In this document: piece by piece, positions 2,323 to 63,306 of the stretch
Position numbering within the stretch: the stretch's first letter is position 1
Layout: every line of letters starts with the position of its first letter
Source: a virus
Lineage: Duplodnaviria; Heunggongvirae; Uroviricota; Caudoviricetes
IMG/VR virus record: IMGVR_UViG_3300031963_000024
Span: 69,753-133,752 of that record
Length of the DNA stretch: 64,000 bases
Reading direction: 5' to 3' (one strand)
The notes under the pieces: model-generated
What the model saw: only the letters and a program-made list of their open reading frames with translations
The model's database searches: none
What the model was told of the DNA's origin: nothing
Made by a program: the position numbers and the translations under genes

Positions 2323-2698
2323 TACTAGTCCTGTGTTGGCAAATGGTGTTAAGAACTATCTAATTGACATTGATGGTACAGTAACTGAAGATGTGCCAAA
2401 TGAAGAATCTGAACGTATGGCAACTTGTTTACCATATGAAGGTTCGGTAGATATGATTAACACTTGGTATGATGATGGACATATTATAACATTCTTCACA
2501 TCGAGGACTGATGAACATGAAATAGTAACCAAACAATGGTTAGATAAACATGGTTTCAAATACCACAACTTGTTACTTAATAAACCAAGAGGTGGAAACT
2601 ATCATTGGATTGATAATCACATTGTACGAGCGACTCGTTATGATGGTAAATGGGGTGAATTAGTTAAAAAAGAACACACAATAGAAGTATTTGAATAA
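2276..2698 (+). CDS. HAD-superfamily phosphatase (nucleotidase / Pnk-phosphatase-like)
   Basis: HAD motif I LIDIDGTVT (DxDGT); motif II FFTSRT; Lys/Asp motifs (NKPRGG, WIDNH). The 5' end overlaps dut by 47 nt in another frame. A TTG near 2335 could be the real start. Confidence 0.55.
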   Translation: MKKNEAQTDLVQQESNTSPVLANGVKNYLIDIDGTVTEDVPNEESERMATCLPYEGSVDMINTWYDDGHIITFFTSRTDEHEIVTKQWLDKHGFKYHNLLLNKPRGGNYHWIDNHIVRATRYDGKWGELVKKEHTIEVFE

Positions 2699-14467: not shown

Positions 14468-14492
14468 AATCCGTTGTTAAATATTTATAAGT

Positions 14493-21982: not shown

Positions 21983-22204
21983 ATGATTAATAATAACACA
22001 AAACTATTCGATTTTTTACAATATAACTCAAATGACGAGCTTGAAAAAATAATTAATTCTATTGAAAAGGAGCAATCTTTATTTTATTTAATACAATCAG
22101 TAAAATCTGCGTATAAACGAGGTTGTTTTACATTAGAAGAATCTGAAATTATTTCAAAATCATTACGTGTTTTAAGTACACCCGATAAAAAAGATGAAGC
22201 ATAA
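21983..22204 (+). CDS. Hypothetical small protein
   Basis: 73-aa ORF flanked by two terminators. TATAAATA lies about 8 nt upstream of its ATG. Confidence 0.35.
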   Translation: MINNNTKLFDFLQYNSNDELEKIINSIEKEQSLFYLIQSVKSAYKRGCFTLEESEIISKSLRVLSTPDKKDEA

Positions 22205-22232
22205 AAAAAGGGACAATTTCTTGTCCCTTTTT
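22204..22232. terminator. Bidirectional rho-independent terminator
   Basis: AAAAAAGGGACAA-TTTC-TTGTCCCTTTTTT. Confidence 0.75.
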
Positions 22233-22250
22233 TATTTCATTTAGAAAAGA

Positions 22251-24047
22251 TTATCTCAATTCTCTTAAGTCAAATGTTCTAACACCATCAACTGTGATTT
22301 TACCGTAGAAACGGTTGTTCACCATCTTCTTAGCGTATCTTGTCATGATACCTTTGATAGGTGTGAAGTTGAATGGGTTATACATTGTTGGAGTCAATTG
22401 TAATGGTACGTATGGTGCGTACACATAACCTGTGTCTAACAATGAGTTACCTTTGTGACCCAACAATACTGTGTTTGGTGGGAAATAAGGGTCTCTGTAA
22501 ACTTGGTATCTACCAGCCAAAGTACCAACTCTTTCAATACCCATGTTGTATTGGTCTTGCTCAGGAGCTGCGTTTGATACGTGGAAGTATTCCAAATCAT
22601 CAAAGATTGCACTGATTTCTGAAGAAACAACAATCCAGTTAGCTCCACCTCTCAATGTTGATTTGTGGATTTGAGCTGAAAGTTGGTTGATTGCTGTAAT
22701 CAATGTTTGGTTCCAATCTTTTTGTGTGTATTGTGTTAATGGATTTGAAGCAGTTCCTCTCTTCCAACCGTTGTAATCCCATCTCAAAGTCCATGCTGCA
22801 CCTTTTCTCAAATCTCTCAAGATTTCTCTATCAATTTCTGCCGCAACTTGCTCAGACAATAAAGCTGTTAATTCAGCTTCAGCGTCAATGTTGTGGAATG
22901 CTGCAACGTCTTGTGCTAATTCAGGAGACCATTGTGCTCTCAATTTTCTTTCAGTTACAGAAACTGTTACTGATTCCAAATCAAAAGAAACTTCACCGAT
23001 TTCATCTTCAAATTCTAAGTTTTGATAAACTCTATATGTACATTTGAATGCTTGATTATATGCGGTTGTTACAGATGTTGTAACACCTGAGTAACCATCT
23101 AAAGAATCAGCACCGATTGAACAAGGAACTTGAGTATCCACCTCTAAGTAAATAATACCAAGAGCATCACAGATATTGTCATAAGAACCTCCATTACCTG
23201 TACTTGGGAATGATGTTGTTGCTTGTGAACCATATTGTACAATACCTTTACCGTATTTTTGAGTTACAACTCTAAATAATTGGTTACCAGACAATCCTGA
23301 AAAACCATTTGAAGTAGCATCTGTAATTGGTGTTACAGATAAGCTAGACAAAAACTCTTCAGAATCCATTTCGTTACCGTTAGGACCAATTAATTTACCA
23401 GCACCAGCTGTGTTAAATCCTGATAAAGCAATAATAACTTTTCTGTATTCACCAGCACTGTAACCACTTTGGATTAATTCTGAACCACTCCAAACTTGTG
23501 TAGACGCTGTGTATGTTTCAGCACTAAACTTACCTTTAGAATAGTCAAATAACCCTGGAGGGTCTAATGATGCTTCGTTACCTTCGTAGAATCTGTCATA
23601 CAAATTCTTATCGTTTGCGCCATAACCAGCATTTGTTGATGATGGTCCATTAGGTGCTCCAAAAGGTGCGAAGTGTGTACCACCTTCAGTTGGGTCTTGA
23701 CCCATGTCATAACCCTGAATTTTAGGTACGAAGTAGAACAATTTACCGATAGGTAAGTTCATAGCTTGTACAGATACGATGTCGTTAGCCAACAATTTAG
23801 AGAAAACTCTTCTTACGATTGGAAATACAACCGTTTCGAAAGAACCGTCTGATGCTGTGCTAGCAGCTTCGTTAATTAAGTGAGATGCTTGGTTTTCATA
23901 AAGTTGAGCGATGTTTTCTTTAACATGTCCTCTCAAACCTTCCAAGAATCCTAATTTGTCCCATTTGTTAATAGTATCTTCTTTGATAACTTTAAGGTGC
24001 TTAAGACCGATGTTACCAACAAGACCTGATTCTAATAATGCTCCCAT
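22251..24047 (-). CDS. Major capsid protein, T4 gp23-like
   Basis: N-terminus LLESGLVGN...AQLYENQA...VVFPIVRRVFSKLLANDIVSVQAMNLPIGKLFYF matches the conserved gp23-family block. The gene uses host-like high-expression codons (tac, aac, ttc, atc, cgt). Confidence 0.85.
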   Translation of the reverse strand: MGALLESGLVGNIGLKHLKVIKEDTINKWDKLGFLEGLRGHVKENIAQLYENQASHLINEAASTASDGSFETVVFPIVRRVFSKLLANDIVSVQAMNLPIGKLFYFVPKIQGYDMGQDPTEGGTHFAPFGAPNGPSSTNAGYGANDKNLYDRFYEGNEASLDPPGLFDYSKGKFSAETYTASTQVWSGSELIQSGYSAGEYRKVIIALSGFNTAGAGKLIGPNGNEMDSEEFLSSLSVTPITDATSNGFSGLSGNQLFRVVTQKYGKGIVQYGSQATTSFPSTGNGGSYDNICDALGIIYLEVDTQVPCSIGADSLDGYSGVTTSVTTAYNQAFKCTYRVYQNLEFEDEIGEVSFDLESVTVSVTERKLRAQWSPELAQDVAAFHNIDAEAELTALLSEQVAAEIDREILRDLRKGAAWTLRWDYNGWKRGTASNPLTQYTQKDWNQTLITAINQLSAQIHKSTLRGGANWIVVSSEISAIFDDLEYFHVSNAAPEQDQYNMGIERVGTLAGRYQVYRDPYFPPNTVLLGHKGNSLLDTGYVYAPYVPLQLTPTMYNPFNFTPIKGIMTRYAKKMVNNRFYGKITVDGVRTFDLRELR

Positions 24048-24082
24048 TTTTTAAAATATTTAGTTTGTTTTTAGTTTATTTT

Positions 24083-25366
24083 TTATTTATTCATTTTTGA
24101 CATAAGGTCCTTCATTCTTAAGAACTGTGGATTTTCATATGTCTTACTTTCAACCAAATTAGTTGAACCTTTTGATGGTGTTCTATCAATGTTTTCAACG
24201 ATAGATTCTTTAACCATTGGTTTTTCAACTGAACCCAATTCCTCTTTAATAGTTTGATAAAGATTTTTAGATTCTTTGATTGTTTCGACGTTGTCAAAAC
24301 GTCTCATGATATTTATTTTTTCTGATTTTGTAGTTGTATGTTCAGTAAACAATCTTGTAGCGTAAGCTAAGTTAGAATTGAAAACAGCAACTTCATTTAA
24401 TTTTTCTCTGAAAATATTTAATGCTTTTCTGTACTCTTCATTTTTAGCTCTCAACTTTTCAACTTCTTCTTGTAAAGCGTCATTTGTAATAACTTTCATT
24501 TTTGGAAGACCTTTTCTTTTTGGAAAATTTCTACTTCCATTTCCGTAAGTTCTAGCAGCTTCTTTTGTTTCAGTTTCTTTTTCTTCAACATCATGTTCAC
24601 CTTCCTTAAATTCAAATTTCTTAGGACCTTTAAAGTTTTCTTTGTGTTGTGACATGTTAGATTTGAAACCTTGCATGTTTACTTTACCTGAAGATTTTTC
24701 TGATTTAACTTTTCCCATACCCATACCTTTTGGTTTAACCATCATACTAGATTCCGTTACTGTAGAGTCATCTTCATCAACATTATCATCTTCACCTAAT
24801 TCAATTTCGTAAACAATTTCTTCGTCGTATGATTCATTAGTATCATTAGAGTTGTAATAATCTGACTCTTCTAATGATTCCATCATGTCATCGTCTTGGA
24901 AAGTAATTTTGTCTACATCTAAATCTTCACCAGTTTTCTTAATGATAACTCCGTCATTATCGCCCATACCGTTAAGTACTGCCATAATTTCTTCCATAGA
25001 TGCTCCCGTCATGTCTAACGGTTCTAGTTCATCATCATCATCTTCCAATCCCATGTCATCCATGTCATCCATGTCATCCATTTTCATAGAATCTGAATCA
25101 TCGGACATCATATCATCACCCATCATAGGTGTCTTCATGTCCATAGCCATCAATGAATCTTCTTCTTCATCTTCAGTAACATCTTCGTTACTATAAGACT
25201 CATCTACAGCATAAGTGTCAGCCTCTTCAAGAGACTCTTTTACTAACTCTTCGATTTCTTCCTTCATTGTAGAAGCAAGTATTCCTTTTGCGTTTTCGGT
25301 AACAACTTGTTCCAAATTTTTCATTTGTAACAACGCTTCCTCAACTAATGATTTTTTTTCGCTCAT
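24083..25366 (-). CDS. Prohead scaffold/core protein (gp22-like by position), highly acidic
   Basis: Lies immediately upstream of the capsid gene. Extremely D/E-rich, with DDMDDMDDM repeats and coiled-coil segments. Confidence 0.45.
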   Translation of the reverse strand: MSEKKSLVEEALLQMKNLEQVVTENAKGILASTMKEEIEELVKESLEEADTYAVDESYSNEDVTEDEEEDSLMAMDMKTPMMGDDMMSDDSDSMKMDDMDDMDDMGLEDDDDELEPLDMTGASMEEIMAVLNGMGDNDGVIIKKTGEDLDVDKITFQDDDMMESLEESDYYNSNDTNESYDEEIVYEIELGEDDNVDEDDSTVTESSMMVKPKGMGMGKVKSEKSSGKVNMQGFKSNMSQHKENFKGPKKFEFKEGEHDVEEKETETKEAARTYGNGSRNFPKRKGLPKMKVITNDALQEEVEKLRAKNEEYRKALNIFREKLNEVAVFNSNLAYATRLFTEHTTTKSEKINIMRRFDNVETIKESKNLYQTIKEELGSVEKPMVKESIVENIDRTPSKGSTNLVESKTYENPQFLRMKDLMSKMNK

Positions 25367-25447
25367 TTTTTGTGTAATAAAATAGTTTTTATTTACACTA
25401 TAAATATGCCCCTAATCAAAAAAATCTTAAATGGTGATATAATAAAA

Positions 25448-25474
25448 TAAAAAAAACCCGATTTCTCGGGTTTT
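25448..25474 (-). terminator. Rho-independent terminator (minus strand)
   Basis: AAAAAAAACCCGA-TTTC-TCGGGTTTT. The T-run follows the stem on the minus strand. Confidence 0.6.
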
Positions 25475-25477
25475 AAA

Positions 25478-25687
25478 TTATTCAAAAACTTCATCGATTT
25501 TACTTTCACTGACTGCCGTTATTCGCCAATCATGTTGAAATCCTTTGAATTTTTCGGTTACTTTAGCTTCAACATCTGTTACGCTGTAACCTTTAACTAA
25601 TTTTTCTTCTCTAACTTTTTTGATTTTTCCTGTGTTTTCATCAATCAAGTCGTACTGAATTTTTGCTACAAAATATTTTTCGTCCAT
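25478..25687 (-). CDS. Hypothetical small protein (head-module)
   Basis: 69-aa ORF between the protease and scaffold genes. Confidence 0.4.
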   Translation of the reverse strand: MDEKYFVAKIQYDLIDENTGKIKKVREEKLVKGYSVTDVEAKVTEKFKGFQHDWRITAVSESKIDEVFE

Positions 25688-25697
25688 AATAATAATT

Positions 25698-26420
25698 TTA
25701 TCTATATCCCAAAAAATCGTTCAATTTTCCCATTAAGTCAAGCGATTTACCTAAACCACCATCAATTCTTCCATCTTCTTTTGATTTTTTTTCTTCTTCA
25801 AGATTTTCATCGTATTTGTGACGGTCATCCTTATTAAGGAATAGATAAGCGCCGGGTGTAGATGGATTCATAACCAAGTCAAAACAAATCATTTCATAAT
25901 CATTTTGAACTTCATTGTGTTCTCCCTTTTTAGCTAAAGAACCTACACCACGTGAAGATACCCCCATCGTAACACCTTGTCTCATTAAGTTTGCCGCTAC
26001 ATCACCCTTAGATGATACAATACCTCTTTCATGGAAACCTGGTGTTGTTAATAACCTTAGTTTACCCATAAGAACGTTATCATCCCACCATATATCATCA
26101 ATAATGTGTGATACTCTGTCTAAATCAATCAAAGATGATTCAGGGTGATTAAGTTCTGATGTTGCCAAACCTTTAGATATTGTTTGTTTATATTTTTCAG
26201 CTTCTCTTTTAAGAATATTTTCAGGATATACACGACCATTTCTATTAGGTGTACCATACTTTTGTAGAGTTGCGTAAAATACAAATGGTTTAGAGTGGTC
26301 TAATTGTGATTTTTGTTCATTAACTAAATCAGTATCTACGGCATTTTTCATAGATATATGACCTGCATCATATTCTATCAATATTCCTTTACCTATTTCA
26401 TTCGGTTTAAGTATCTTCAT
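25698..26420 (-). CDS. Prohead core serine protease, T4 gp21-like (peptidase S77)
   Basis: The segments SELNHPES (catalytic His) and GVSSRGVGSL (catalytic Ser) resemble the gp21 family. Its position upstream of scaffold and capsid matches T4 synteny. Confidence 0.6.
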   Translation of the reverse strand: MKILKPNEIGKGILIEYDAGHISMKNAVDTDLVNEQKSQLDHSKPFVFYATLQKYGTPNRNGRVYPENILKREAEKYKQTISKGLATSELNHPESSLIDLDRVSHIIDDIWWDDNVLMGKLRLLTTPGFHERGIVSSKGDVAANLMRQGVTMGVSSRGVGSLAKKGEHNEVQNDYEMICFDLVMNPSTPGAYLFLNKDDRHKYDENLEEEKKSKEDGRIDGGLGKSLDLMGKLNDFLGYR

Positions 26421-26443
26421 ATTAAAATATTTATCAATAAATA

Positions 26444-26902
26444 TTAGAATATCTCAAAGTTTTTGTTTTTCAACTTGTTTTTAGAATATTGAATGGTAAA
26501 ATACTTTGATTTCTTTAAAACATTGTCGTGAACTTCTTTTAATACGTGATTTAATTCTGTTGATATATTTTCAGATTTGAACTCAATATTTTCTTTTGTA
26601 AAGAATGTAATTTCAAGATTTAAAAAACTTGCTTTATCTACTTTTATCCCACTTGTTCTTAAATCTAAATCAACAATAAAATGTTCTTTGAATAATGATT
26701 TATTGTAAACTTCTAAAACTTTATGTTTAATAGTTCGAGATATTGTCCCAACTACTCTTTCCCAATTATCCCTTTCTTGTGTGGGTGTTACCCATGTTTG
26801 TAATACTAAATAAATTGATTTTAATTCTGTCGCATCTACACTACCGTAATAGCACTTAGCATCTTGGAATAAATCCAATTTTGATGTTTTTCCTTTTTTC
26901 AT
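26444..26902 (-). CDS. Hypothetical protein (head-module)
   Basis: 152-aa ORF. Confidence 0.4.
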   Translation of the reverse strand: MKKGKTSKLDLFQDAKCYYGSVDATELKSIYLVLQTWVTPTQERDNWERVVGTISRTIKHKVLEVYNKSLFKEHFIVDLDLRTSGIKVDKASFLNLEITFFTKENIEFKSENISTELNHVLKEVHDNVLKKSKYFTIQYSKNKLKNKNFEIF

Positions 26903-27014
26903 TCTTTTTCATTTGTGAAATGTTTATTTGTTGTAGTGAAAAGATAATAAAAAAAAACTTATTAACAAATTTAATTTTATTTGTATATTTATATCAATAA
27001 CACACATTTTTTAT

Positions 27015-27209
27015 ATGATAAAAATAATTTTAGAAAAAGGTGAAAGTTTGGAAAAAGCTTTAAAACGTTACAAACACAAAGTTATCAAAACAAAACAAAT
27101 TGAACAACTTCGTGCAAAACAAGAGTATGTTAAAAAAACAACTTTGAAAAGGGAACAAATAAAAAAAGCAATATACAAACAACAAATCGCCCAAAGTAAC
27201 TTTGACTAA
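27015..27209 (+). CDS. rpsU: Ribosomal protein S21 homolog
   Basis: 64-aa basic protein. IKIILEKGESLEKALKRYKHKVIKTKQIEQLRAKQEYVKKTTLKREQIKKA follows the bS21 pattern (V.V....esie.ALrRFKr..ek.G.l.e.rrR.fYeKPt..rKr...a). Confidence 0.65.
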   Translation: MIKIILEKGESLEKALKRYKHKVIKTKQIEQLRAKQEYVKKTTLKREQIKKAIYKQQIAQSNFD

Positions 27210-27215
27210 TATTTA

Positions 27216-27476
27216 TTGGTAACAAATACCAAGAATATGAAAAACTTTATTATGAATTTACTAGGAAACGGTTCTGACGTTTCATCAAAAAGATTCGCAT
27301 CTTTATTCACTTTATTAAACGTAATTATCTTAGCTTATGTTGCAACATTTACATCTAAAGATGGTGTAACACCTGAGTATATGTTTGATGCACTTTGTTT
27401 AATTGCTGGTGGTGGATTGGGTCTTACAGTTGTTGAGAAGATTTTCTCAAAAGGTTCAGACAAAAAAGCTGAATAA
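27216..27476 (+). CDS. Hypothetical small membrane protein
   Basis: Two predicted TM helices. Followed by a terminator. Confidence 0.4.
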   Translation: MVTNTKNMKNFIMNLLGNGSDVSSKRFASLFTLLNVIILAYVATFTSKDGVTPEYMFDALCLIAGGGLGLTVVEKIFSKGSDKKAE

Positions 27477-27477
27477 C

Positions 27478-27505
27478 AAAAAACCCCTCTTTTGAGGGGT
27501 TTTTA
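27478..27505. terminator. Rho-independent terminator
   Basis: AAAAACCCCTC-TTTT-GAGGGGTTTTT. Confidence 0.75.
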
Positions 27506-27507
27506 TT

Positions 27508-28233
27508 TTAAAGTCCTTCTGACAACTTTTTAAGTTTGTAATATGATAAGGAATCAATCGGTGTTGATTCTATTCTTACCTTTGTTTCATTTAATTTTTT
27601 GTTGGTATCATCATCACTTTCGTTAATACTTGAAAGTTTTCCAAGAACCTCAGTTTTCAATCTTTCAATACCTTCACTCAATTCTTCTTGTGACATTCTT
27701 AAGATTGATTTTAATTCAAACAATTCAGATTCACTTAATTGTGAATATTCTTTTGCGAATGTGTCAGCTGCCACACCAAACATAGATTCTAATGGAATGT
27801 TAACTGATTCTGTGATTGTTGATTCTTCTTTTGTTTCTGACATTAACTTCCACATTTGTTTTCTTGATTCAACCAATTTAGTAAAATCATCGGCGGTTTT
27901 TGCATAAACCATGTTATCTAATAACTCATATTGATTATCAATACTTTCTCCTAAAGTTTCAACCCAGCTGTCGAACTGTTCAAATTCACGTTTGTTACTG
28001 TTAATTGTATTTTTTATGAAATCAACTGAAAGTCCCAAAAATTCTTTCGCAACTTCTTCGTTCAATCCTTTGGTTTTCATTAAGGAACCGTATTCAACAT
28101 ATAGTTCACCAACGGATTTGTTGTCCTTAATAAAATCTCTAAATTCTTTTATAATTTGTTTAAAATCTTCAGTTTTGTATGTTTTAACTAAAGCATTTTC
28201 AACAATACTTTTTAATAATCCAAAATTTCTCAT
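27508..28233 (-). CDS. Hypothetical protein
   Basis: 241-aa ORF. Confidence 0.4.
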   Translation of the reverse strand: MRNFGLLKSIVENALVKTYKTEDFKQIIKEFRDFIKDNKSVGELYVEYGSLMKTKGLNEEVAKEFLGLSVDFIKNTINSNKREFEQFDSWVETLGESIDNQYELLDNMVYAKTADDFTKLVESRKQMWKLMSETKEESTITESVNIPLESMFGVAADTFAKEYSQLSESELFELKSILRMSQEELSEGIERLKTEVLGKLSSINESDDDTNKKLNETKVRIESTPIDSLSYYKLKKLSEGL

Positions 28234-28246
28234 ATCAATAAATATC

Positions 28247-30088
28247 TTAAGTATTTAATAATTCGTTTAATTTGGTTTCAATTTCATTAATTGATGTTCT
28301 ACCTTTAGATAAATCAATTTCATCTCTACCACTAATTAAATCATCTTCCAAAATTAAATTTAAATCGTTCATTTTACTTTCAGGTGTTACTTCACCTCCA
28401 GCCGGTGGTTCAGGGGATTCAGGAATATCAGGTGCTCCACCCATATCTTCAGGTCCTCCACCTATTCCACCTAAACTACCCATATCACCACTTGGTGGTG
28501 CTCCACCCATATCGTCACCCTCAGCAGGTGGCGTGGCTGTTTCACCGGGTTTCTTACCATACAATCTATCAATATTATCAAAAATACCTGTATGAATAAT
28601 TACCTCAGGAGTTTTTTGTAATTCAGCCCCAACTGCTTTTTCAATTCTTTGTTGTTGGATATCCAATTTAATTTCCTCATCAGAGAATCCAAGAATGTGT
28701 TTTTTTGCCCATGTTGTTGATACCGCTTGGATACCGTTACCTGGGTCAGAAACCGCATCTTTATAAAGAAGTATTTTTTCTTTCCAATTCTCAATCTTTA
28801 ATAAATCAGCTTGAGTTGATGGGTTAGTTAATCCTAATGTGAAGTTTGTTAATTCATCTTCAAAACCAAGAATAAACAAGTGAATAATTGCAATCTTATT
28901 TAATTCCTGAATCATTGATTTTTGAATTCTATTAATTGTTCTCGCAAAACGAATATCTTGTAATGCCAAGTTCTTACCATCACCAACAACTTCTTCAAAA
29001 CCTAAGAACGCTTTTGGTACACGAAGAGCGGTTAATAATTTCTTTTGGATATATTCAATATCGGCAATTTCAGAAAGGTTCTGTGCTCCCGCCAATGTTT
29101 CAATAGGACTTGTTTGTGCTGGGTCACGAACAGGAATGAAATAATCTTGGTCAACCGCCATTTGGTTCATTCTTAAGTCAACGTTACCTGTTTTTGAGTC
29201 AACAACTTGGTCTCTCTTAAACTTATTAGCAATTCTTTGAATGTATGGTTCAACGTCCTTATCATCCATGTTACCAACATAAACTTTGAATACACGTCTT
29301 TCAGGTGCTCTTGATGTTCTATACACCAACATTGCATCTTCTGATAATAACAACTGTTTCCAAGTACGTCTTGCTTTTTCCAACATAGCAGTACCATAAG
29401 GAAGTTTTCTATCATCACCTAACAAACGGAAGTGTGCGACCTCCCAAGTATTCATTTCCATATCTTTTACTTTCCATACGAATTTCAAAGATTTTGCATC
29501 CTCAGTTGTATTATGTGATGGTTTGATTTTCATACCACGTTCCAAACGTTCAATTTCAATGTTTGGAAGTTGTTGACAACCCATAATACCTTTTTCAGAA
29601 TCCAATTTTAAGTAAACAAAGTTATCACCATACTTACAAGTGTTTCTTGTCCACATTGGTAAGTTGGTGTTAATATCCAATCTGTTATTAAATAAATCCG
29701 CTAATATTCCCTTAATTCTATTTGATTCTGAATATATTTGTAGGATATATCCATCTTCATTTGTTGTTGTTGATTCCTCAGCGTAGATATCAAGTGCTGC
29801 GGAAATTTCAGGGGTATACTCCATTGACTCATAATCATAGTATGATGCCAATCTTGTTGGTTCGTAATAAATTGCCTGAGAATATAAATTATTTTCTACT
29901 TTACCCCATTGTTGACCAAGATACATTGTCTGTTGAGCTTGGAGTTTTTCCTTCTCAAATTCTTGCTTATCTGTGGTTTTTAATAATTCCTTCTTATCAA
30001 ATTTATAAACTGGAGGCTGTTGACCCAAAGTTGAGTCGGGACCAAAGACTTTGGTAAGTCGTTGCCATATGGTGAAATTGTCTGCCAT
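28247..30088 (-). CDS. Putative portal protein (gp20-like by synteny) with Gly/Pro-rich C-terminal tail
   Basis: 613-aa ORF immediately downstream of the large terminase and upstream of the head-maturation genes. No motif verified. Confidence 0.45.
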   Translation of the reverse strand: MADNFTIWQRLTKVFGPDSTLGQQPPVYKFDKKELLKTTDKQEFEKEKLQAQQTMYLGQQWGKVENNLYSQAIYYEPTRLASYYDYESMEYTPEISAALDIYAEESTTTNEDGYILQIYSESNRIKGILADLFNNRLDINTNLPMWTRNTCKYGDNFVYLKLDSEKGIMGCQQLPNIEIERLERGMKIKPSHNTTEDAKSLKFVWKVKDMEMNTWEVAHFRLLGDDRKLPYGTAMLEKARRTWKQLLLSEDAMLVYRTSRAPERRVFKVYVGNMDDKDVEPYIQRIANKFKRDQVVDSKTGNVDLRMNQMAVDQDYFIPVRDPAQTSPIETLAGAQNLSEIADIEYIQKKLLTALRVPKAFLGFEEVVGDGKNLALQDIRFARTINRIQKSMIQELNKIAIIHLFILGFEDELTNFTLGLTNPSTQADLLKIENWKEKILLYKDAVSDPGNGIQAVSTTWAKKHILGFSDEEIKLDIQQQRIEKAVGAELQKTPEVIIHTGIFDNIDRLYGKKPGETATPPAEGDDMGGAPPSGDMGSLGGIGGGPEDMGGAPDIPESPEPPAGGEVTPESKMNDLNLILEDDLISGRDEIDLSKGRTSINEIETKLNELLNT

Positions 30089-30125
30089 CCCTCTAAATAT
30101 AGTATCTTTTTTTTATGAATAAACT

Positions 30126-31895
30126 TTATCTTCTACCGAATAACCATAAATACTGTTCATAATCCTTTTTTGTTGGATTTGATGAAAAAGCATCGTTATA
30201 TCCTGTTGGTGATAAAACAGGCATTCCCGGATTAAATTGTGTTATTTCTCTATTTGTACTGTCGTCAGCTACGGTCCAAGAGCTTAACATAGCCTTTGTT
30301 TGTTCATTAACCTTTTCAAGTTGATTATATGCGTTTTGTCCAACATATAAAGCCATTGACATTGACATAATTAAATCATCATGTTGCCCTTTCATGTGGT
30401 CAGGTCGTCCGTTTATATAAACATACGTATTCATCTCACCAAGTAATCTAGCAGAATACAATTTAAATCCATGTCTTAACGCTTCCTCAAACGCCGCAAT
30501 AATTTGAACCCTTTTACCATTAAAGTTTATACCCGGTATTTTTTCATTAGACTTAACAGTTGACTCCCAAATATTACCATAATTAATTCCATCAACATAT
30601 AAGTTTTTATAACCCAATTCTTGTAATTTTCTTGATGTTGAAACTCCCATACCACCCGTAATATCAATAACAATAAACGCATCGTAGTAATTTCCCCACT
30701 TATAAGCAATTTCAGCCGCAACATCAGGAGGAAGTTTTCCAACATACTCGGCAACTTGTTCCCTTTCGTCAAAATCGATAACTTGGAATGATGTAAAATC
30801 CTCAGAGTCACCCCTTGATACGTCCATACCCATAATGTATCTGTGACCAACAACTGGTTCTTTCCAAATCCATAATTGATTTTGAACCATCTTTGATTCA
30901 GGTTGACGAACCATTTCAGTTCTAATCTTATCAGTTAATTGTGCATCGAATACGTTATCTCCCGAACCTAAAAAGTTACATTCCAACTCCTGAGAAATTT
31001 TTCTCTTATCAAATTTTAACTTTTTGGCCATAGTTTCAAACCAACCAGAACTTACTTTGTAACCATCATCCATTAATTTTTTGAAATCACCAAAATTTCT
31101 TTGACTTGTTGGTACACCATCAAAACTAATAATCTCAGGGTTGGGGTATTCATCACGATTTAAAAAATAGTGAATTAAATCTTTGACTTTAATAAAGTAT
31201 AAATCTTTAGTATATCTTGGGTCTCTCCACCAATACATTTCAGTAACTTTAAAACTATTCATTCCTTTAATAGCCTGTTCATAGATACTGTAATAGATTG
31301 CATCATATCCGTTTGGTGTTGAAATTACAATAACTTTACCACCTGTTGATAACGATGCCATACAAGCTGCCCAGAAATCGTCATTAGCTTCGATGTACGC
31401 AGCCTCGTCAAATATCAATACGGTAGGGGTATAACCACGAAGTGCATCAGGTGAAGTTGCAACCGCTTTGACTTCACACCCATTTGATAATTTAAAGTGT
31501 CTTTGTGAATTCTTTTCAGATGAAAATGATACCCCCATCCAATTTGGCCACTGTTCCGTAAACCCTCTAATTTTATTAGCAAATTCTACCGCAGTATCTA
31601 ATTTGTTGGCAATTACAAGAATTTTTTCAGGTTTTTGTTTGTTTGCAAAAACTACTTTTTTAGACGCCCAAGCGGCAGTAACTGTTGATACACCGGCTTG
31701 ACGATATTTTAAGGCAATGTTTTCCTCGTAGTTATCATAATCTTCTACTAAGGTTTCTTGGTCAGGAAATAAATCCAACGGAACGTATTTTGACTGTGTG
31801 TTGTCATACGTTTGTAAATAATTTCTTAAAGCGTATGGAGTGTTTTTGACACACTTAGCATATTCTATAAGGGCTTGTTCTTTTGTGATACTCAT
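30126..31895 (-). CDS. Terminase large subunit, T4 gp17-like
   Basis: Walker A-like YRQAGVSTV; Walker B VLIFDEAAYI; C-terminal RNaseH-like nuclease motif MGMDVSRGDSEDFTSFQVIDFD. Confidence 0.8.
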   Translation of the reverse strand: MSITKEQALIEYAKCVKNTPYALRNYLQTYDNTQSKYVPLDLFPDQETLVEDYDNYEENIALKYRQAGVSTVTAAWASKKVVFANKQKPEKILVIANKLDTAVEFANKIRGFTEQWPNWMGVSFSSEKNSQRHFKLSNGCEVKAVATSPDALRGYTPTVLIFDEAAYIEANDDFWAACMASLSTGGKVIVISTPNGYDAIYYSIYEQAIKGMNSFKVTEMYWWRDPRYTKDLYFIKVKDLIHYFLNRDEYPNPEIISFDGVPTSQRNFGDFKKLMDDGYKVSSGWFETMAKKLKFDKRKISQELECNFLGSGDNVFDAQLTDKIRTEMVRQPESKMVQNQLWIWKEPVVGHRYIMGMDVSRGDSEDFTSFQVIDFDEREQVAEYVGKLPPDVAAEIAYKWGNYYDAFIVIDITGGMGVSTSRKLQELGYKNLYVDGINYGNIWESTVKSNEKIPGINFNGKRVQIIAAFEEALRHGFKLYSARLLGEMNTYVYINGRPDHMKGQHDDLIMSMSMALYVGQNAYNQLEKVNEQTKAMLSSWTVADDSTNREITQFNPGMPVLSPTGYNDAFSSNPTKKDYEQYLWLFGRR

Positions 31896-31912
31896 CCCTT
31901 ATAAATACTCCG

Positions 31913-33244
31913 TTACTTGGTTGGCGGAGTATCAATACCTAAATCACTTAAGAAACTCAAGTCAACATCATCGTCATCATCATCGTCAGATGGATAACCC
32001 ATAGTGTCGTCATCGTCATCATCTTCATAGTTTGAACTACCTAAAATTTCTTCTAAATCTTGTTTGTTTAACTCATCGATGATTTGGTCAGCAATACGTT
32101 CCATTTCAGTATACGCAGTTGCATCACCCTTATTAACTCTTTGGGCTAATGATGTGAATTTGTTTTTTGGTAATTTAGAAAACTCTCTGAAAATTAAACT
32201 TTGAACAATCTTCATGTTGTCTTCTAATACTTTTGCAGGATATGTTTCCAACAATTTTTCCCACAAATATGTACCTGTGATAATATCAAATATTTCGTTT
32301 ACTAATGTGTCAGCAGTTTGTTTAACCATTTGAGCTTGAATTGGGTCAGTTGGTAAAGATGCCGCACCTAAAATATCGTAATAACCTTTAATTAATTCAT
32401 GAACCAAAATTGGGAACATAACCGCCTTTGCTCTAACAACAAAATTACCAGTATATTCACCGTCTTCATCTTGTTCCATTTCTACTTCTTCAGAACCACC
32501 CATATTTTGTCCCGCCGCAGCCATTTGTTGTACCATTTCAGGTGGTAATAACCAATACAAGTAATCATTCATTGCCATCAAAGCACCATACTTGTCAGTA
32601 ATACCAGGTTCCATTTCTTCCAATGAATCTCTGATTAATTCAAACATAAAGTGACCCTTTTTAGCGGCACCTTGAATAATTGCGTTCATAAATCTACGTT
32701 TTGCAACCATGTAATCAAAGTTTTCAAACGCATCTACAAATTCTTCTAAATCTTCACCTGAATCTTCAAATGCTAATTCAATATCTTCAGATGAAAACTC
32801 TTCAGGTTCTGCTTGGAAATTTTCATTCCCCGCTTCACCCATTCCAACCAACTTAGGGTCAAATTGTATAAATTCGGCATATTTTGGGTCAACCAATTCA
32901 TTTGATACTAAATCTTTTGCCAATTGTTCAAGTTCTTGTCTTCTTGAACTTTCAAATTGACTAACCTCACCAAACAATCTCATCATCATCATTTGAAGTC
33001 CACCCATATTGTTAGGAACATTCATTCCCAAATATCTTTCAAGTTTTGTCACAACATCTCTAAATCTTTTAGATGCTGCAATTTCTTCAAATGATTGTCT
33101 ATCATCTTCACCCTTTTTAGGAATAAATGGACTATTAGAAAGTGGTGTTTCACCTCTTTCAATTGCCCTTTTTAAATCAGGGTTTATACTAAAACCTGTT
33201 GGCTCATCAATTGGAGCTTCAAATATTTTTCTTTTGTTTTTCAT
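31913..33244 (-). CDS. Hypothetical protein with poly-Asp C-terminus
   Basis: 443-aa ORF. C-terminus is DDDDDDTMGYPSDDDDDDDVDLSF. Confidence 0.4.
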   Translation of the reverse strand: MKNKRKIFEAPIDEPTGFSINPDLKRAIERGETPLSNSPFIPKKGEDDRQSFEEIAASKRFRDVVTKLERYLGMNVPNNMGGLQMMMMRLFGEVSQFESSRRQELEQLAKDLVSNELVDPKYAEFIQFDPKLVGMGEAGNENFQAEPEEFSSEDIELAFEDSGEDLEEFVDAFENFDYMVAKRRFMNAIIQGAAKKGHFMFELIRDSLEEMEPGITDKYGALMAMNDYLYWLLPPEMVQQMAAAGQNMGGSEEVEMEQDEDGEYTGNFVVRAKAVMFPILVHELIKGYYDILGAASLPTDPIQAQMVKQTADTLVNEIFDIITGTYLWEKLLETYPAKVLEDNMKIVQSLIFREFSKLPKNKFTSLAQRVNKGDATAYTEMERIADQIIDELNKQDLEEILGSSNYEDDDDDDTMGYPSDDDDDDDVDLSFLSDLGIDTPPTK

Positions 33245-37721: not shown

Positions 37722-39806
37722 ATGATTGAATCACAAGACCAAAACGAAAAGATGGGTGGAAACCGAAAAGGTAAAACAGATACAATTAACTCCAAAACAC
37801 CTGTTTTGGACAATTTTTCTCGTGACCTTATTAAACTAGCAAAAGAAGGCAAACTTGACCCTGTAATTGGTAGGGAACATGAGATTGAAAGATTGGCACA
37901 GATTATTTCAAGAAGAAAGAAAAACAACCCTATTTTGATTGGTGAACCAGGTTGTGGTAAAACCGCAATTGTTGAAGGTTTAGCTATGAAAATATTTCAA
38001 GGAGACTGTCCTCAAAACTTAATTGATAAAAGAATTGTTAGTTTAGATATGACATCAATTGTTGCCGGTACAAAATATCGTGGACAGTTTGAAGAACGTA
38101 TTAAAGTAATACTTGATGAGTTGAGTGATAACCATGATGTTGTCATATTCATTGATGAAATTCACACAATCATTGGTGCTGGAAATTCATCAGGTTCGTT
38201 GGACGCTTCTAATATCTTTAAGCCAGCACTTGCTCGTGGTGAACTCCAGTGTATTGGTGCGACAACCTTAGATGAATACCGTGAACATATTGAAAAGGAT
38301 GGTGCGTTAGAGCGTCGTTTCCAAAAAGTACATGTTGATGCAACATCTATTGAGGACACAATTATAATTATGAATCGTGCCAAAGAAAACTACGAAAAAC
38401 ATCACAAGGTTCATTTTAGTAATGAAGTTATTAAAACTTGTGTAATGTTGGCGGACCGATACATCACTGACCGTGAGTTTCCTGATAAAGCAATTGATAT
38501 TATGGATGAGGTAGGTGCAAGATGTCAAATCAACGTAACCGTTCCTGAAATTATTGAAAAACTTAAAGAGGAAGCAAACCAAATTAAGGACCGTAAAGTT
38601 GAAGTTGTTAGAAGTCAAAAGTACGAAGAAGCTGCGGAATTACGAGATATGGAACGTAAAGTTTTAGCTCGTCTTCAAGAAGAAAAAGAGAAGTTTGAAA
38701 AAGACCGACTAACAAATAAAAAAGAAGTTACCGAAGAAATGGTTTATGAAGTTGTTTCCCAAATGACCAAAATCCCAATTTCAAAACTTTCACAATCAGA
38801 ATCAGATTCGTTAATTAATTTAGAAGAAAGTTTAACCAAAGCGGTTATTGGACAAGAAGATGCGGTATCTAAAATTTCAAAAGCAATCCGTAGGAATCGT
38901 GTAGGTATTAAAGACCCGAATAAACCAATTGGTTCATTTATTTTCTTGGGTTCAACAGGTATTGGTAAAACACATTTGGCTAAACAATTAGCCAAAGAAA
39001 TCTTTGGAAGTTCAGATGCTTTGATTCGTGTAGATATGTCTGAGTATCAAGAAAAATTTACAATGACAAGATTGGTTGGTTCGCCTCCAGGTTATGTTGG
39101 TCACCAAGAAGGTGGACAATTAACTGAACAAGTTAAAAACAAACCTTATTGTGTAATCTTGTTTGATGAAATTGAAAAGGCACACAAAGACGTTTATTCA
39201 CTTTTGCTACAAGCGATGGATGAGGGACATTTGACTGACGGTCTTGGTAGAAAAATCAACTTTAAAAATACCTTGATTATTATGACATCTAACATTGGTG
39301 CTAGAAAAGTACAAGACTTTGGTACTGGAGTTGGATTTGGAACTCGTTCTAAAAATGAAAAAGAAACTGAAATCAAACAAATGATGATTGAGGATGAACT
39401 TAAAAAGTTTTTTCCACCTGAATTTTTGAATCGTGTTGATGATGTTGTTTTCTTTAATTCATTAAAAGAAAATGAAATTAAACAAATTGTTACTTTGGAA
39501 ATTTCTAAATTAATTTTACGATTACGTTCTATGAACTATAACATTGTTATTGATGAAAGTTTGGTTAGTAGAATTTGTGAAGTTGGGTTTGATGAAAAAT
39601 TTGGGGCTCGTCCAATCAAAAGAGCTATCCAAAATCAAATTGAGGATTTTATCTCAGATGAGATTCTTAAGAAGAATATTGTTAATGATTCAGTATATAT
39701 ATTGGAGTTTGTTGATGACAAAGTTCGTATAAAAGAAAAAACATCAGAAATTACTGATGTTTCAGAAAAACCAAAAAGGGGTAGAACAAAAAAAGGGGTC
39801 AATTAA
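37722..39806 (+). CDS. ClpC/ClpB-like double-ring AAA+ unfoldase lacking Clp_N domain
   Basis: D1 module: [15 protein letters not shown], Walker [20 protein letters not shown]. Middle UVR motif [14 protein letters not shown] (ClpC-type). D2 module: [28 protein letters not shown], sensor [11 protein letters not shown] candidate VGF loop (GTGVGFGTR) is present. Confidence 0.85.
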
Positions 39807-39822
39807 GACCCCTTTTTTTTAA
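39788..39822. terminator. Bidirectional rho-independent terminator
   Basis: AAAAAAGGGGTC-AATTAA-GACCCCTTTTTTTT at a convergent junction. Confidence 0.75.
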
Positions 39823-40661
39823 TCCCATAACATCCATCGTTCCGTTTTTGGTTTGTGTTCGTGGAATGTGTGACCCAAACTTTCAATCATTTGTTTTACC
39901 ATCTCAATCGCTGTGAACACATCCTCAATAACAACATACTCATTGGCTGTGTGGTAGTTGTAATAACCACAAGATACATTTAAACAAGCAATGTTGAATT
40001 TTGATGCAATTTGTGAAACGTCAGTGTACGGGTGTTTCATCAATTCATGTTTTTCACCAAAATGTTCATTAAGAAGTGGTCCAACCTTTTCAAAGAAAGG
40101 AGAGTTACGGTCAAAAAGTTTTACACCCCAACAATATTCAGTTACCATCCAAGATTCGGGAGCATCAAACTGAATACAGTAACCAACATTAGAGAAAAAC
40201 TCAGGACTTGCTTTTCGTGAACCGTGACAACCTGTTTCTTCAGATACAAAGAAAGCCGCTTTAATAACGGGGAGTTGTTCAAGGACATCTAAACATGAAT
40301 AGACACCACATTTGTCATCACCACCAATTCCAACAGGGTTACCTGTAACTGCGTGATAAGCCTTAAAGGAATCTTTTAGTTCCCCATGTACGTTTGGGAG
40401 TTGTTCTTCCTCTACAACCATTTCAGTGATTGAGTGGACGGTGTCAGTATGTGCAATAACACATGGATAGACATCTGCCTCACCTTTTGTAACATAAACG
40501 TTACCATACTGGTCAATTGTGTGGTCGTATCCTTTTTCAGTAAAATACTTGTCAAGATACTCAATCATAAGAGTTTCTTGGTAAGTTTTAGTCGGAATAG
40601 AAAGGACTTCTTTTAGGTGTTGAATTTTTTCTGGAGTCATTTGACTACAAAGATACAACAA
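39819..40661 (-). CDS. M20/M28/M42-family zinc metallopeptidase-like protein
   Basis: Metal-ligand motifs VIAHTDTVH, GGDDKCGV and SEETGCHG. Confidence 0.45.
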   Translation of the reverse strand: MLYLCSQMTPEKIQHLKEVLSIPTKTYQETLMIEYLDKYFTEKGYDHTIDQYGNVYVTKGEADVYPCVIAHTDTVHSITEMVVEEEQLPNVHGELKDSFKAYHAVTGNPVGIGGDDKCGVYSCLDVLEQLPVIKAAFFVSEETGCHGSRKASPEFFSNVGYCIQFDAPESWMVTEYCWGVKLFDRNSPFFEKVGPLLNEHFGEKHELMKHPYTDVSQIASKFNIACLNVSCGYYNYHTANEYVVIEDVFTAIEMVKQMIESLGHTFHEHKPKTERWMLWD

Positions 40662-43452: not shown

Positions 43453-44193
43453 ATGACAAACACAACCACTAAACTCAACGCCAAAATCAGAAACTACAAC
43501 GGTCAAAATGACTTCGTTCGCAAAATGAAACAAGTAGTATTCCAATACGGAGGACTAACTGAAAAACAAGCCCAAGCAGCTGAAAAAGCATTGGCCGAAC
43601 CAACAAAAGTTGAGACACGTTTCCTACCTGACAATATGAGAAAAATCGCTGACTACTCAGGTGAAAACACCTTCGTGTTGGATGTAAAAGGTAAGTTCCT
43701 TAAATACGGTACTTTGTCAGACGCACAAGTATCTGCAGCAAACAAACAAATCCAAAAAGAAAATGACGACAAAAACCGAATGGACGTGAACATTGACGTA
43801 ATCGGTGAAACAATCGTGGTAGGTCGTAACACAGGTGAGGACTTGAAAAAACAAAAAGGTTTGAACTTCAACCCACTTTTGTTGGACATCACTGAGGTTG
43901 TTACCTTGACTGCAAAAGCGGTAAAATTCAAAGGTAAATTGACAACCAAAAACTGTGGTGTCTGCAAATCATGTGGTCGTACCTTGACCGATGAGTTCTC
44001 TCGTCTAACAGGATACGGTAAGACATGTGCAAAACACTTGAGAGTTGAGTACATCAAAGACAAGTCTGAAGTTGAACGTTTCAACCAAGATGTACTTGCA
44101 AGAATTGAAGAGATTGGTGAAATGGAATTTTGGGTTCCTCGTCGTCAAATCAAAGTGTGGAACGGAGTTTCAGCAATGTTGTTGAAATTCTAA
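43453..44193 (+). CDS. Hypothetical highly-expressed early protein with internal duplication and C-terminal CxxC...CxxC/H zinc ribbon
   Basis: The ORF track starts at 43435, but the -7 element ends at 43432, so the start is more likely the ATG at 43453 (near-leaderless). Codon usage is sharply different from its neighbours (ttc, aac, gac, tac, atc, cgt), like the capsid gene. Duplicated ~27-aa module (FVRKMKQVVFQYGGLTEKQAQAAEKAL / FVLDVKGKFLKYGTLSDAQVSAANKQI). Zinc-ribbon motif CGVCKSCGR...CAKH. Confidence 0.55.
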   Translation: MTNTTTKLNAKIRNYNGQNDFVRKMKQVVFQYGGLTEKQAQAAEKALAEPTKVETRFLPDNMRKIADYSGENTFVLDVKGKFLKYGTLSDAQVSAANKQIQKENDDKNRMDVNIDVIGETIVVGRNTGEDLKKQKGLNFNPLLLDITEVVTLTAKAVKFKGKLTTKNCGVCKSCGRTLTDEFSRLTGYGKTCAKHLRVEYIKDKSEVERFNQDVLARIEEIGEMEFWVPRRQIKVWNGVSAMLLKF

Positions 44194-44792: not shown

Positions 44793-44878
44793 GCTTGGGT
44801 GGCGGAATAGGTAGACGCGCTGGACTTAAAATCCAGTGAACAGTAATGTTCGTACGGGTTCGATTCCCGTCTCAAGTA
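44793..44878 (+). tRNA. tRNA-Leu (anticodon UAA), type II with long variable arm
   Basis: Acceptor GCTTGGG/CTCAAGT (two G.U pairs). D-arm GCGG-AATAGGTAGA-CGC. Anticodon arm CTGGA-CTTAAAA-TCCAG. Long variable arm. T-arm ACGGG-TTCGATT-CCCGT. Discriminator A. No encoded CCA. Confidence 0.8.
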
Positions 44879-44887
44879 CTAAAAGAA

Positions 44888-52675: not shown

Positions 52676-53326
52676 ATGAAATTGATTTTAGAAAAAGGTC
52701 AGCAGTTATTTTTCACGAGTGATACACATTATTCTCACTCTAATATCTGCCGTGCAACAACTCGTTGGGCTGGTTCTGAAAACTTAACCCGTGATTTCAA
52801 GTCTCTTGACCACATGAATGACACATTGGTAAATAACATCAACGAAATGGTTGGTGAAAATGATGTTTTGATTCACTTAGGTGACTGGTCTTTTGGCGGG
52901 TTTGAACAAATTGAAGAGTTTCGTAACAGAATTTTATGTAAAAATGTTCACTTGGTTTATGGAAACCACGACCATCACATTCGTAGAAACAAAGAGAATG
53001 TTCAAAGTTTGTTCACATCAACTCAAGATTATATCCACTTGGATTTAAGAATCCCAAACGGAAAAGAAATGGACAAACTTTCAATTGTATGTATGCACTA
53101 CCCAATTGCAAGTTGGAACGGAATGAACGATGGTGTAATTCACTTACACGGTCACGTTCACTTACCTCCACACCTTAGAATTAACGATGGTAAGGCAATG
53201 GACGTGGGTGTTGATGGTAACAACTTGTATCCAATTAACATCAAAGAAATTCGTTCAATTATGAAAGACCGACCACACAAAAAATTGACATTACCTAAAG
53301 ACCATCACGAAAAAAGAATTGACTAA
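52676..53326 (+). CDS. Calcineurin-like metallophosphoesterase (candidate RNA 2',3'-cyclic/3'-phosphatase)
   Basis: MPE motifs: TSDTHYSH, LGDWSFGG, GNHDHH, MHYP, GHVH. Confidence 0.65.
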   Translation: MKLILEKGQQLFFTSDTHYSHSNICRATTRWAGSENLTRDFKSLDHMNDTLVNNINEMVGENDVLIHLGDWSFGGFEQIEEFRNRILCKNVHLVYGNHDHHIRRNKENVQSLFTSTQDYIHLDLRIPNGKEMDKLSIVCMHYPIASWNGMNDGVIHLHGHVHLPPHLRINDGKAMDVGVDGNNLYPINIKEIRSIMKDRPHKKLTLPKDHHEKRID

Positions 53327-63129: not shown

Positions 63130-63306
63130 ATGGAACTACTATATATTGTATTCGGCATGTGGATTGGGGTAATTTTTACTTATTTCCAATGGTACAGACC
63201 AATGGCACAAAAAATTGAAGACCTTGAAGAAGGTATGAAAGATTGTATTAAATCAGGATTAAATGGACCAATAAATTACGGTTCAATAGAAAAAGACATG
63301 GACTAA
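63130..63306 (+). CDS. Small membrane protein (58 aa), not in the supplied ORF track
   Basis: MELLYIVFGMWIGVIFTYFQWYRP... One TM helix. Sits between the promoter motif and the CYTH gene. Confidence 0.35.
   Translation: MELLYIVFGMWIGVIFTYFQWYRPMAQKIEDLEEGMKDCIKSGLNGPINYGSIEKDMD

Follow-up and report, generated by a model that had tools for sequence, protein, structure and literature searches.

Bacteriophage genomes encode bS21 more frequently than any other ribosomal protein. Here, we describe a bS21 gene in a 64,000-nucleotide stretch of the Caudoviricetes record IMGVR_UViG_3300031963_000024 (the window), where it is located among the genes of the head module. The closest described systems are the myophages of freshwater-lake Bacteroidetes reported by Chen et al. 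(ISME Commun 2:31, 2022, PMC9723584), which comprise five clades of 293–331 kb with a G+C content of 31–34%. Their Supplementary Table 2 gives the gene order TerL, portal, hypothetical, bS21 (reverse), hypothetical, Peptidase_S77, DUF4494, hypothetical and Gp23, and their tables place a family named bS21_CN (fam498/fam20) between bS21 and the portal gene. The phage bS21 was described as Flavobacteriia-like, with Tyr54 conserved and with divergence at Arg21, Phe23, Asp25 and Thr28. Its N-terminal helix was placed over the anti-Shine–Dalgarno (anti-SD) sequence, where messenger RNA (mRNA) would bind. In metatranscriptomes, bS21 transcripts were high together with those of the capsid and other late genes, and the capsid gene was probably co-transcribed with its upstream gene, as was the protease gene with its downstream gene (PMC9723584).

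In Bacteroidota, bS21 hides the anti-SD, and its own synthesis is autoregulated through one strong Shine–Dalgarno (SD) sequence, as reported in Flavobacterium johnsoniae. In this species Tyr54 stacks on A1534 of 16S ribosomal RNA (rRNA) and keeps the anti-SD sequestered (Jha et al. 2021, PMC7797042). The rpsU genes of Flavobacteriales, which encode bS21, carry an extended SD; ribosomes that lack bS21 expose their anti-SD and translate rpsU faster, which results in autoregulation (PMC7797042, PMC9976891). Among natural systems, a phage bS21 expressed together with structural proteins is the strongest candidate for a remodelling of bacterial ribosomes under viral direction, an idea that has already been published.

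The window falls in the freshwater Bacteroidota phage group described above. It shares its gene order and Pfam families with the phages of Chen et al.; the G+C content over most of the window is 28–36%. A search of their supplement for five IMG/VR sample numbers and two S21 peptides gave no match to any of their 61 sequences; the tables there list scaffolds by name and contain no sequences. In both, Tyr54 is kept, the same N-terminal positions diverge and the nearest cellular bS21 is Flavobacteriia-like; the alignment of phage and cellular sequences made here shows the published residue pattern again and extends it to positions 5, 8, 27, 30 and 37. As bS21_CN lies between bS21 and the portal gene, it corresponds by position to a gene for a protein of 241 amino acids (aa) in the window. 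The order in the window is that of Supplementary Table 2, so the arrangement of bS21, including gene order and reverse strand, is already published, and the value of the window is confirmatory. A 79-aa gene between bS21 and the 241-aa gene is found in the window and is absent from the three scaffolds examined in the published tables. The paper of Chen et al. contains no discussion of a missing SD, of the ATATTTAT box described below or of terminators. Three features appear to be additions to the published picture: the loss of the SD, the ATATTTAT box that bS21 shares with head genes, and the organisation of bS21 as an autonomous unit with a clade-specific partner and an empty-site relative. 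These regulatory additions provide useful leads, but they do not amount to a system of a new kind.

The bS21 unit, its relatives and its origin

The unit consists of the following features, in window coordinates; nt denotes nucleotides and pI the isoelectric point.

26985..26992, + strand: ATATTTAT box, 22 nt upstream of the bS21 start codon
27015..27209, + strand: bS21 coding sequence, 64 aa, ATG start, pI 10.1, above the cut-offs of PF01165 and TIGR00030
27209..27216, + strand: second ATATTTAT box, overlapping the bS21 stop codon, 20 nt upstream of the 79-aa gene
27237..27476, + strand: 79-aa protein with a charged C-terminal end and two helices predicted to span the membrane
27479..27504, both directions: bidirectional intrinsic-terminator hairpin with an A-run, a 6-bp GC stem (CCCCTC/GAGGGG) and a T-run

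The initial annotation, made from the sequence without database searches, had read the basic 64-aa open reading frame (ORF) at 27015–27209 as bS21 and proposed a search with the Pfam hidden Markov model (HMM) as the check. This search was significant: PF01165 (Ribosomal_S21) matched with 38.3 bits (E 1.1e-9; gathering score 27), aligning over profile positions 2–54 of 55. The NCBIfam equivalog model TIGR00030 matched with 32.8 bits (cut-off 28.95) and PHROG 21469, 'ribosomal protein S21', with an E-value of 4e-4. The fairly modest HMM score is expected at 64 aa. Among all PDB chains, the top match was F. johnsoniae bS21 (7JIL chain z, E 1.5e-11), which is 43% identical and aligns without gaps over residues 2–60, with Tyr54 retained. 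The charge of the protein (18 lysine and arginine against seven aspartate and glutamate residues), like its size, is as for bS21; pI values range from 9.9 to 10.5 in the phage set and from 10.1 to 11.0 in the cellular set. An AlphaFold2 model based on 27 homologues has helices at residues 12–26, 28–36 and 41–63, with a mean predicted local distance difference test score of 89.3. All ten of its best Foldseek matches in the PDB are bS21 chains at a template modelling score of about 0.5; the short length of the protein accounts for their weak E-values (0.06 or higher). A misread gene on the minus strand was ruled out, as the longest minus-strand ORF across the S21/79-aa interval is at most 44 aa. 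On these matches, the window ORF is a real ribosomal protein S21 gene, far beyond what chance would produce.

A search of 5.8 billion proteins returned 57 bS21 homologues, mostly of 64 aa, and the ORF is intact at 60–65 aa across 43 distinct phage variants. Pairwise ratios of non-synonymous to synonymous substitution (dN/dS) between the 64-aa variants were 0.11–0.29 where synonymous sites were unsaturated, disregarding loci L051 and L070, which were misaligned by indels; judged by these ratios, the window bS21 is under purifying selection. Tyr54 is found in 97% of the 43 phage variants and in all of the 66 cellular sequences, and A15, L16, K17, K20, K22, T26, K40, R46 and A52 are likewise common to both sets. 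Phage and cellular sequences are separated by positions 5, 8, 21, 23, 24, 27, 28, 30 and 37. The phage consensus has Y/H21, V23, I/Y24 and Q28 where the cellular consensus has R/K21, F23, D/E24 and V/T28, and the window residues (H21, V23, I24, Q28) are of the phage type. For example, position 23 is V in 95% of phage and F in 96% of cellular sequences, and position 28 is Q in every phage sequence and V/T in the cellular ones.

All annotated genes that flank the unit are on the minus strand, so that, as the initial annotation had described, bS21 sits on the plus strand inside a minus-strand head-morphogenesis block, between the portal side and the protease, scaffold and capsid side. A scan of IMG/VR with the neighbouring protease found at least 596 related loci, of which 80 were kept. 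Approximately 70 loci from IMG/VR and metagenomes span the interval between homologues of the 241-aa gene and a 152-aa gene, and nearly all of them have bS21 there, on the opposite strand. Across the related loci, bS21 is 43–100% and the protease 69–100% identical to the window, and the flanks of bS21 are identical on dozens of independent contigs from different samples. In L006 and L007 the protease, 152-aa, bS21 and 79-aa proteins are 100% identical to those of the window in a protein-level comparison, and L008 differs at one bS21 residue (98%); the scaffold, 241-aa and capsid homologues of these three loci are 87–98% identical. These three loci thus come from very close relatives of the window phage. 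The arrangement is also found in L073, a more distant relative that comes from a contig of 270 kb.

One relative, L064, has an empty site. Here, homologues of the 241-aa (32% identity) and 152-aa (54% identity) proteins are 78 bp apart (980–1120), with neither bS21 nor a membrane-protein gene between them. The bS21 unit is therefore polymorphic, inserted or deleted within a head module whose gene order is otherwise collinear, and the empty site supports the word 'inserted' with which the gene had first been described. Chen et al. did not detect the bS21_CN family in two outgroups that lack S21 (PMC9723584). As L064 has a 241-aa homologue without S21, the co-occurrence of bS21 and bS21_CN is not absolute. 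Together, the promoter-like box at 26985–26992, which would supply promoter activity, the hairpin at 27479–27504 and the empty site of L064 make it probable that the bS21 unit is a self-contained, moron-like transcription unit within the head module of a large freshwater myophage.

The second gene of the unit and the terminator had both been noted in the initial annotation. The 79-aa protein has hydrophobic helices at approximately residues 19–40 and 49–66, a holin-like topology, although 'holin' would be a guess from topology. Its gene lies downstream of bS21 only in the clade of the window and its sister clade. A third clade (L027–L029) has a 95–98-aa protein of the same kind in its place, and in the other clades bS21 is monocistronic. 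By this distribution, the 79-aa protein is a clade-specific partner of bS21. Four loci have a weak tblastn match to it (32–34% identity) on the structural strand. Metagenomes contain more than 440 homologues of the 79-aa protein; two distant ones whose contigs were inspected lie in phage contexts without a called S21 gene and gave no functional clue. The hairpin (−17.6 kcal/mol, z −3.3) is located between the convergent 79-aa and 241-aa genes. Of 50 unique contexts, 28 have the bS21 unit closed by a perfect hairpin with a T-run, and the stems comprise several sequences that are unrelated to each other. A scan of 25000–29500 against Rfam at E-values up to 1 found no known RNA family, and the sub-threshold leader and small-RNA models in this region all fell on the terminator hairpin.

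To place the gene among its homologues, we used a neighbour-joining tree, in which the 43 distinct phage bS21 sequences form one clade apart from the 66 cellular Bacteroidota sequences. This pattern points to a single capture in the distant past, after which the gene was inherited vertically, and a Bacteroidota host lineage is its probable source. The nearest cellular bS21 (62% identity) is on a 543-kb contig (L004), in the context rpsU, integrase (tyrosine recombinase), hpf, tuf, secE, nusG, rplK. In a scan of one genome per prokaryotic species, the best hits were from Bacteroidota (Sphingobacteriia, Flavobacteriia and Bacteroidales) at 41–53% identity, and the sole best cellular match from outside this phylum was a metagenome-assembled genome (MAG) labelled Limnohabitans. 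Among GenBank phages, a megablast search with 22000–32000 gave no match, and tblastn with the window bS21 found huge-phage records at 44–50% and a Staphylococcus phage and faecal-phage records at 38–44% identity. The nearest cultured phages by capsid protein are Microcystis phage Mel-JY01 and Flavobacterium phage immuto, both at approximately 42% over a partial alignment. The host is presumed to belong to the Bacteroidota, given the best cellular bS21 hits, the SD-less, A-rich gene starts and a CHU_C domain encoded in the window. This domain, a C-terminal type IX secretion sorting domain, is part of a 1511-aa protein with PKD domains (53854–58389, + strand). The type IX secretion system is not known outside Bacteroidota. 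The 1511-aa phage protein is apparently addressed to the type IX secretion system of the host, which would be a strong clue to a Bacteroidota host.

Shine–Dalgarno loss and the ATATTTAT box

The window bS21 gene has no SD and no GGAGG-like stretch, and its duplex with the 3′ tail of 16S rRNA has an energy of only −1.1 kcal/mol. Taking −8 kcal/mol or stronger as a strong SD, we found one at 2 of 48 unique phage bS21 loci, against 75 of 81 unique cellular rpsU loci; the medians are −1.1 and −19.6 kcal/mol, respectively. The SD-less cellular loci are from Tenacibaculum (L125, L127) and from Weeksellaceae-type genomes (L097, L100, L140, L151), namely Faecalibacter, Empedobacter, a Weeksellaceae MAG and a Flavobacteriia MAG. 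The bS21 of Tenacibaculum has K5, as do most phage copies, and K27 rather than G27; the remaining phage signature is absent. Three phage lineages, L063, L035 and L036, have kept an SD-like sequence before bS21 (AAAGGAGG, AAGGAG and AGGAG, respectively), which may have been left over from an ancestor or may point to hosts of another group. The absence of an SD would place the phage bS21 outside the feedback loop of the host. In the window as a whole, an SD precedes 1 of 75 genes, and gene starts are A-rich at −2/−3, −5/−6 and −10 to −14. The regions of SD-independent initiation in F. johnsoniae are similarly A-rich (PMC6847099).

Of all 8-mers found upstream of ORF starts in the window, ATATTTAT shows the strongest enrichment: it precedes 12 of 75 genes where 0.42 would be expected. 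Twelve of its 19 occurrences precede genes, and its orientation relative to them is sense in 12 cases and antisense in four. The sense boxes on the plus strand start at 14481, 18813, 26985 and 27209, and those on the minus strand have their first base at 51811, 48251, 45600, 36048, 28245, 26444, 25407 and 21976. The spacing from the box to the start codon ranges from 0 to 33 nt across the 12 genes (bS21 22, 79-aa gene 20, 241-aa gene 4, protease 16 and scaffold 33 nt). Boxes with one mismatch lie 4–5 nt before the portal and TerL genes. With these two, seven window genes (five with exact boxes) have a spacing of 4–5 nt, and one more has a spacing of 0 nt.

The box is conserved among relatives. 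It is found in 33 of 34 unique regions upstream of phage bS21 and in none of 71 upstream of cellular rpsU. Among the head genes it precedes the 241-aa gene (37/37 unique regions), the protease (42/42), the scaffold (34/35) and the portal (21/27), and it precedes the 79-aa gene in seven of nine; it is absent before the capsid gene (0/32) and before the DUF4494 gene (0/41). It is kept before head genes in relatives whose proteins are only 30–70% identical. This distribution reproduces the co-transcribed pairs that Chen et al. obtained by RNA mapping. The box resembles the −7 element of Bacteroidota sigma-A promoters, TAnnTTTG, with A replacing G, and we infer that it may act as a promoter. In the window clade, the box before the protease (25698–26444, − strand) lies within a near-perfect palindrome, ATATTTATTGATAAATAT, that overlaps the stop codon of the 152-aa gene; the palindrome was seen in this clade only.

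A host-type promoter of the form TAnnTTTG was sought in front of bS21 and none was found. Canonical TAtcTTTG boxes, some with an upstream TTG, lie before the genes at 39819–40640 (− strand), 43453–44193, 52676–53326 and 63130–63306 (all + strand), which include a peptidase and a phosphoesterase gene. As ATATTTAT and TAtcTTTG precede different genes, at least two promoter classes seem to exist, which suggests that bS21 belongs to the class used by head genes and that TAtcTTTG may mark a second class of host-sigma type. An alternative reading, in which the reverse complement TATAAATA is a T4 late promoter on the minus strand that serves the 152-aa gene, was rejected because the distance from the box to the bS21 start is constant across clades and because sense boxes outnumber antisense ones, 12 to 4. 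The co-expression of bS21 with late structural genes, which the initial annotation had proposed as an alternative to insulation from them, agrees both with the metatranscriptomes of Chen et al. and with the shared box.

Proposed role and competing explanations

We favour, as the likelier account, a role in which a bS21 made late in infection replaces the host protein on SD-blind Bacteroidota ribosomes, keeps the anti-SD sequestered and escapes autoregulation. The phage gene would be transcribed from the promoter class of the portal, protease and scaffold/capsid units, so that bS21 would appear together with the structural proteins, with the timing taken from the metatranscriptomes of Chen et al. 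As its mRNA has no SD, its translation should be independent of the bS21 occupancy of ribosomes, unlike that of host rpsU. The protein would bind the bS21 site on the 30S platform; as the C-terminal helix and Tyr54 are conserved, ribosomes would stay SD-blind, which fits phage genes without an SD. With vacant bS21 sites filled, the SD-dependent host rpsU would stay repressed, so that the ribosome pool would drift towards the phage protein. Lastly, the cluster of substitutions at positions 21, 23, 24, 27, 28, 30 and 37, in and after the N-terminal helix, may bias initiation towards late phage mRNAs, as it lies near the site of the anti-SD and the mRNA in the placement of Chen et al. Translational reprogramming by phage bS21, which the initial annotation had raised as a possibility, is put forward hypothetically, here as in the literature.

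Several points weigh against this account. The promoter call for ATATTTAT is made solely from its position, its conservation and its likeness to TAnnTTTG. Since ribosomes of Bacteroidota disregard SD sequences in any case, the SD might simply have been lost, without selective consequence, when the gene was captured behind a phage promoter. The three lineages with an SD-like sequence (L063, L035 and L036) run counter to a general loss, and the cellular comparison set stems from a pattern-limited scan in which Flavobacterium and Sphingobacteriia predominate. Finally, bS21 is missing from the L064 site, so in that phage it is dispensable or located elsewhere in the genome.

A bolder version, which we consider quite unlikely, is that phage bS21 is one half of a matched late-expression system that favours ATATTTAT mRNAs with very short or nearly absent leaders and that, having no SD, both escapes and silences the host rpsU loop. 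In F. johnsoniae, the −7 box is 4–5 nt from the transcription start. With this spacing, the portal, TerL and 241-aa mRNAs of the window clade would have leaders of approximately 1–2 nt, and those of most relatives leaders of approximately 8–14 nt. The 5′ ends of such short-leader mRNAs would sit on the 30S platform beside the substituted N-terminal helix of bS21. A link between the translation of leaderless mRNAs and whether ribosomes carry bS21 has been reported for Escherichia coli (PMC10491246).

Other explanations of the gene differ in what they ask of it. The phage copy might be an equivalent of host bS21 that only maintains the supply, keeping ribosomes replete after host shut-off without selectivity for mRNAs. 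Such a role would suit the conservation of Tyr54 and the rRNA-anchoring residues and the late joining of bS21 in 30S assembly (PMC7797042). Phage genes also share SD-less, A-rich initiation regions with their presumed hosts, so new specificity is not strictly needed. We nevertheless hold mere supply to be rather unlikely, as phages have nearly invariant residues, unlike those of any cellular sequence, at nine positions, seven of them within 21–37, which suggests a phage-specific function rather than plain mimicry, and as all phage copies fall in one clade. At the other extreme, a non-functional ORF, whether it arose by chance, is the decaying remnant of captured host DNA or results from chimeric assembly with host sequence, is refuted: its sole weak point of purchase is the modest HMM score, whereas the curated cut-offs were passed, the gene is intact in 43 variants with dN/dS well below 1, its flanks recur identically on dozens of independent contigs, and box and terminator are conserved.

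Two further explanations involve the onset and the defence of infection. Chen et al. raised the idea that bS21 is packaged in the virion, injected, and acts at the onset of the next infection. The gene does lie between two head-module genes, near the portal and prohead protease genes and behind the same promoter-like box, and its product is small and basic (pI 10.1); the unit is, however, autonomous, on the opposite strand and closed by its own terminator, which makes delivery by the virion very doubtful. We find it highly improbable that the main purpose of phage bS21 is counter-defence, that is, to overcome a host response that stalls phage translation or that degrades or withdraws host bS21, rather than to redirect the choice of mRNA. 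The locus carries no defence or anti-defence signature, and the explanation overlaps heavily with replacement of the host protein as proposed above. It does have precedents in the stalled phage translation in Cellulophaga baltica that Chen et al. cite as a defence (PMC9723584) and in the speculation by McNutt et al. on an arms race over bS21 exchange and rpsU autoregulation (PMC9976891), and the loss of the SD would free the phage copy from host feedback.

Neighbouring genes and known systems

The head module around the bS21 unit contains the following features.

22251–24047, − strand: gp23-like capsid protein, annotated neighbour of bS21
24083–25366, − strand: acidic scaffold-like protein, neighbour in the head block
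25478–25687, − strand: DUF4494 protein, 69 aa, Pfam match to the C-terminal half (model positions 71–138 of 139)
25698–26420, − strand: Peptidase_S77 prohead protease
26444–26902, − strand: 152-aa protein, divergent from bS21 and upstream of the S77 protease
26903..27014: divergent intergenic region of 112 bp between the 152-aa gene (−) and bS21 (+)
27508..28233, − strand: 241-aa acidic helical protein, between bS21 and portal
28247–30088, − strand: T4-type portal protein
30126–31895, − strand: TerL

The DUF4494 gene is present in all relatives at 61–99% identity, directly after the prohead protease gene, with which it appears to be co-transcribed. The 152-aa protein is 45–100% identical in all related loci that cover its position. 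No credible family for the 79-aa, 152-aa and 241-aa proteins was found in Pfam, PHROGs or NCBIfam. The word AATAAAC occurs approximately 15–30 nt upstream of the starts of the capsid (24047), scaffold (25366) and 152-aa (26902) genes and recurs in the same leaders of diverged relatives; it was not found before bS21 and could be a leader element or a processing site. Elsewhere, the window encodes a ClpA/ClpB-like double AAA+ ATPase (37722–39806, + strand), a fused two-domain glycosyltransferase (2698–4338, + strand) and a transfer RNA, tRNA-Leu(UAA) (44793–44879, + strand). Genes for a Clp/chaperone ATPase and a glycosyltransferase near bS21 are also part of the accessory content described by Chen et al.

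Phage-encoded S21 was known from phages of Bacteroidetes and of SAR11, as the initial annotation had stated: the former are those of Chen et al. 2022 (PMC9723584), and the latter include Pelagibacter phage HTVC008M. Incorporation of the HTVC008M protein into the ribosomes of living E. coli cells, the general model followed here, is reported by Mizuno et al. (2019, Nat Commun 10:752, as cited in PMC9976891). According to that secondary account, HTVC008M resembles the window in encoding bS21 in a T4-like myophage of an abundant aquatic bacterium. Unlike that of the window, its host is SAR11, an alphaproteobacterium, and tblastn against GenBank phages detected no close sequence relation. The Bacteroidota-specific logic of Tyr54 and anti-SD sequestration does not apply to it.

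Cellular rpsU of Flavobacteriia (Jha et al. 2021, PMC7797042; McNutt et al. 2023, PMC9976891) is homologous to the window gene, has the same length and shares Tyr54. Both keep the ALK motif, K20/K22, K40 and R46. The window bS21 differs from it in having phage-specific residues at nine positions and a phage-type promoter-like box, and in lacking the extended SD and the rpsU-integrase-hpf-tuf context. In Francisella tularensis, bS21 paralogues change the translation of specific genes, according to two reports (PMC9578407, PMC13374519). As described there, these paralogues are a precedent for bS21 swaps that alter the translation of particular mRNAs; unlike the window gene, they are chromosomal, belong to a gammaproteobacterium and have no tie to SD-blind ribosomes.

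In organisation, the closest parallel is with the morons of tailed phages. Known from the lambdoid literature, these are autonomous transcription units between the genes of a late operon; in the classical case, expression takes place in the prophage state and the lysogen profits from it. The unit in the window is moron-like in that one accessory gene, equipped with a promoter-like element and a terminator of its own, is inserted in opposite orientation between conserved head genes. Unlike classical morons, the bS21 unit carries the box of the structural genes, and phage bS21 is reported to be transcribed with the late lytic genes.

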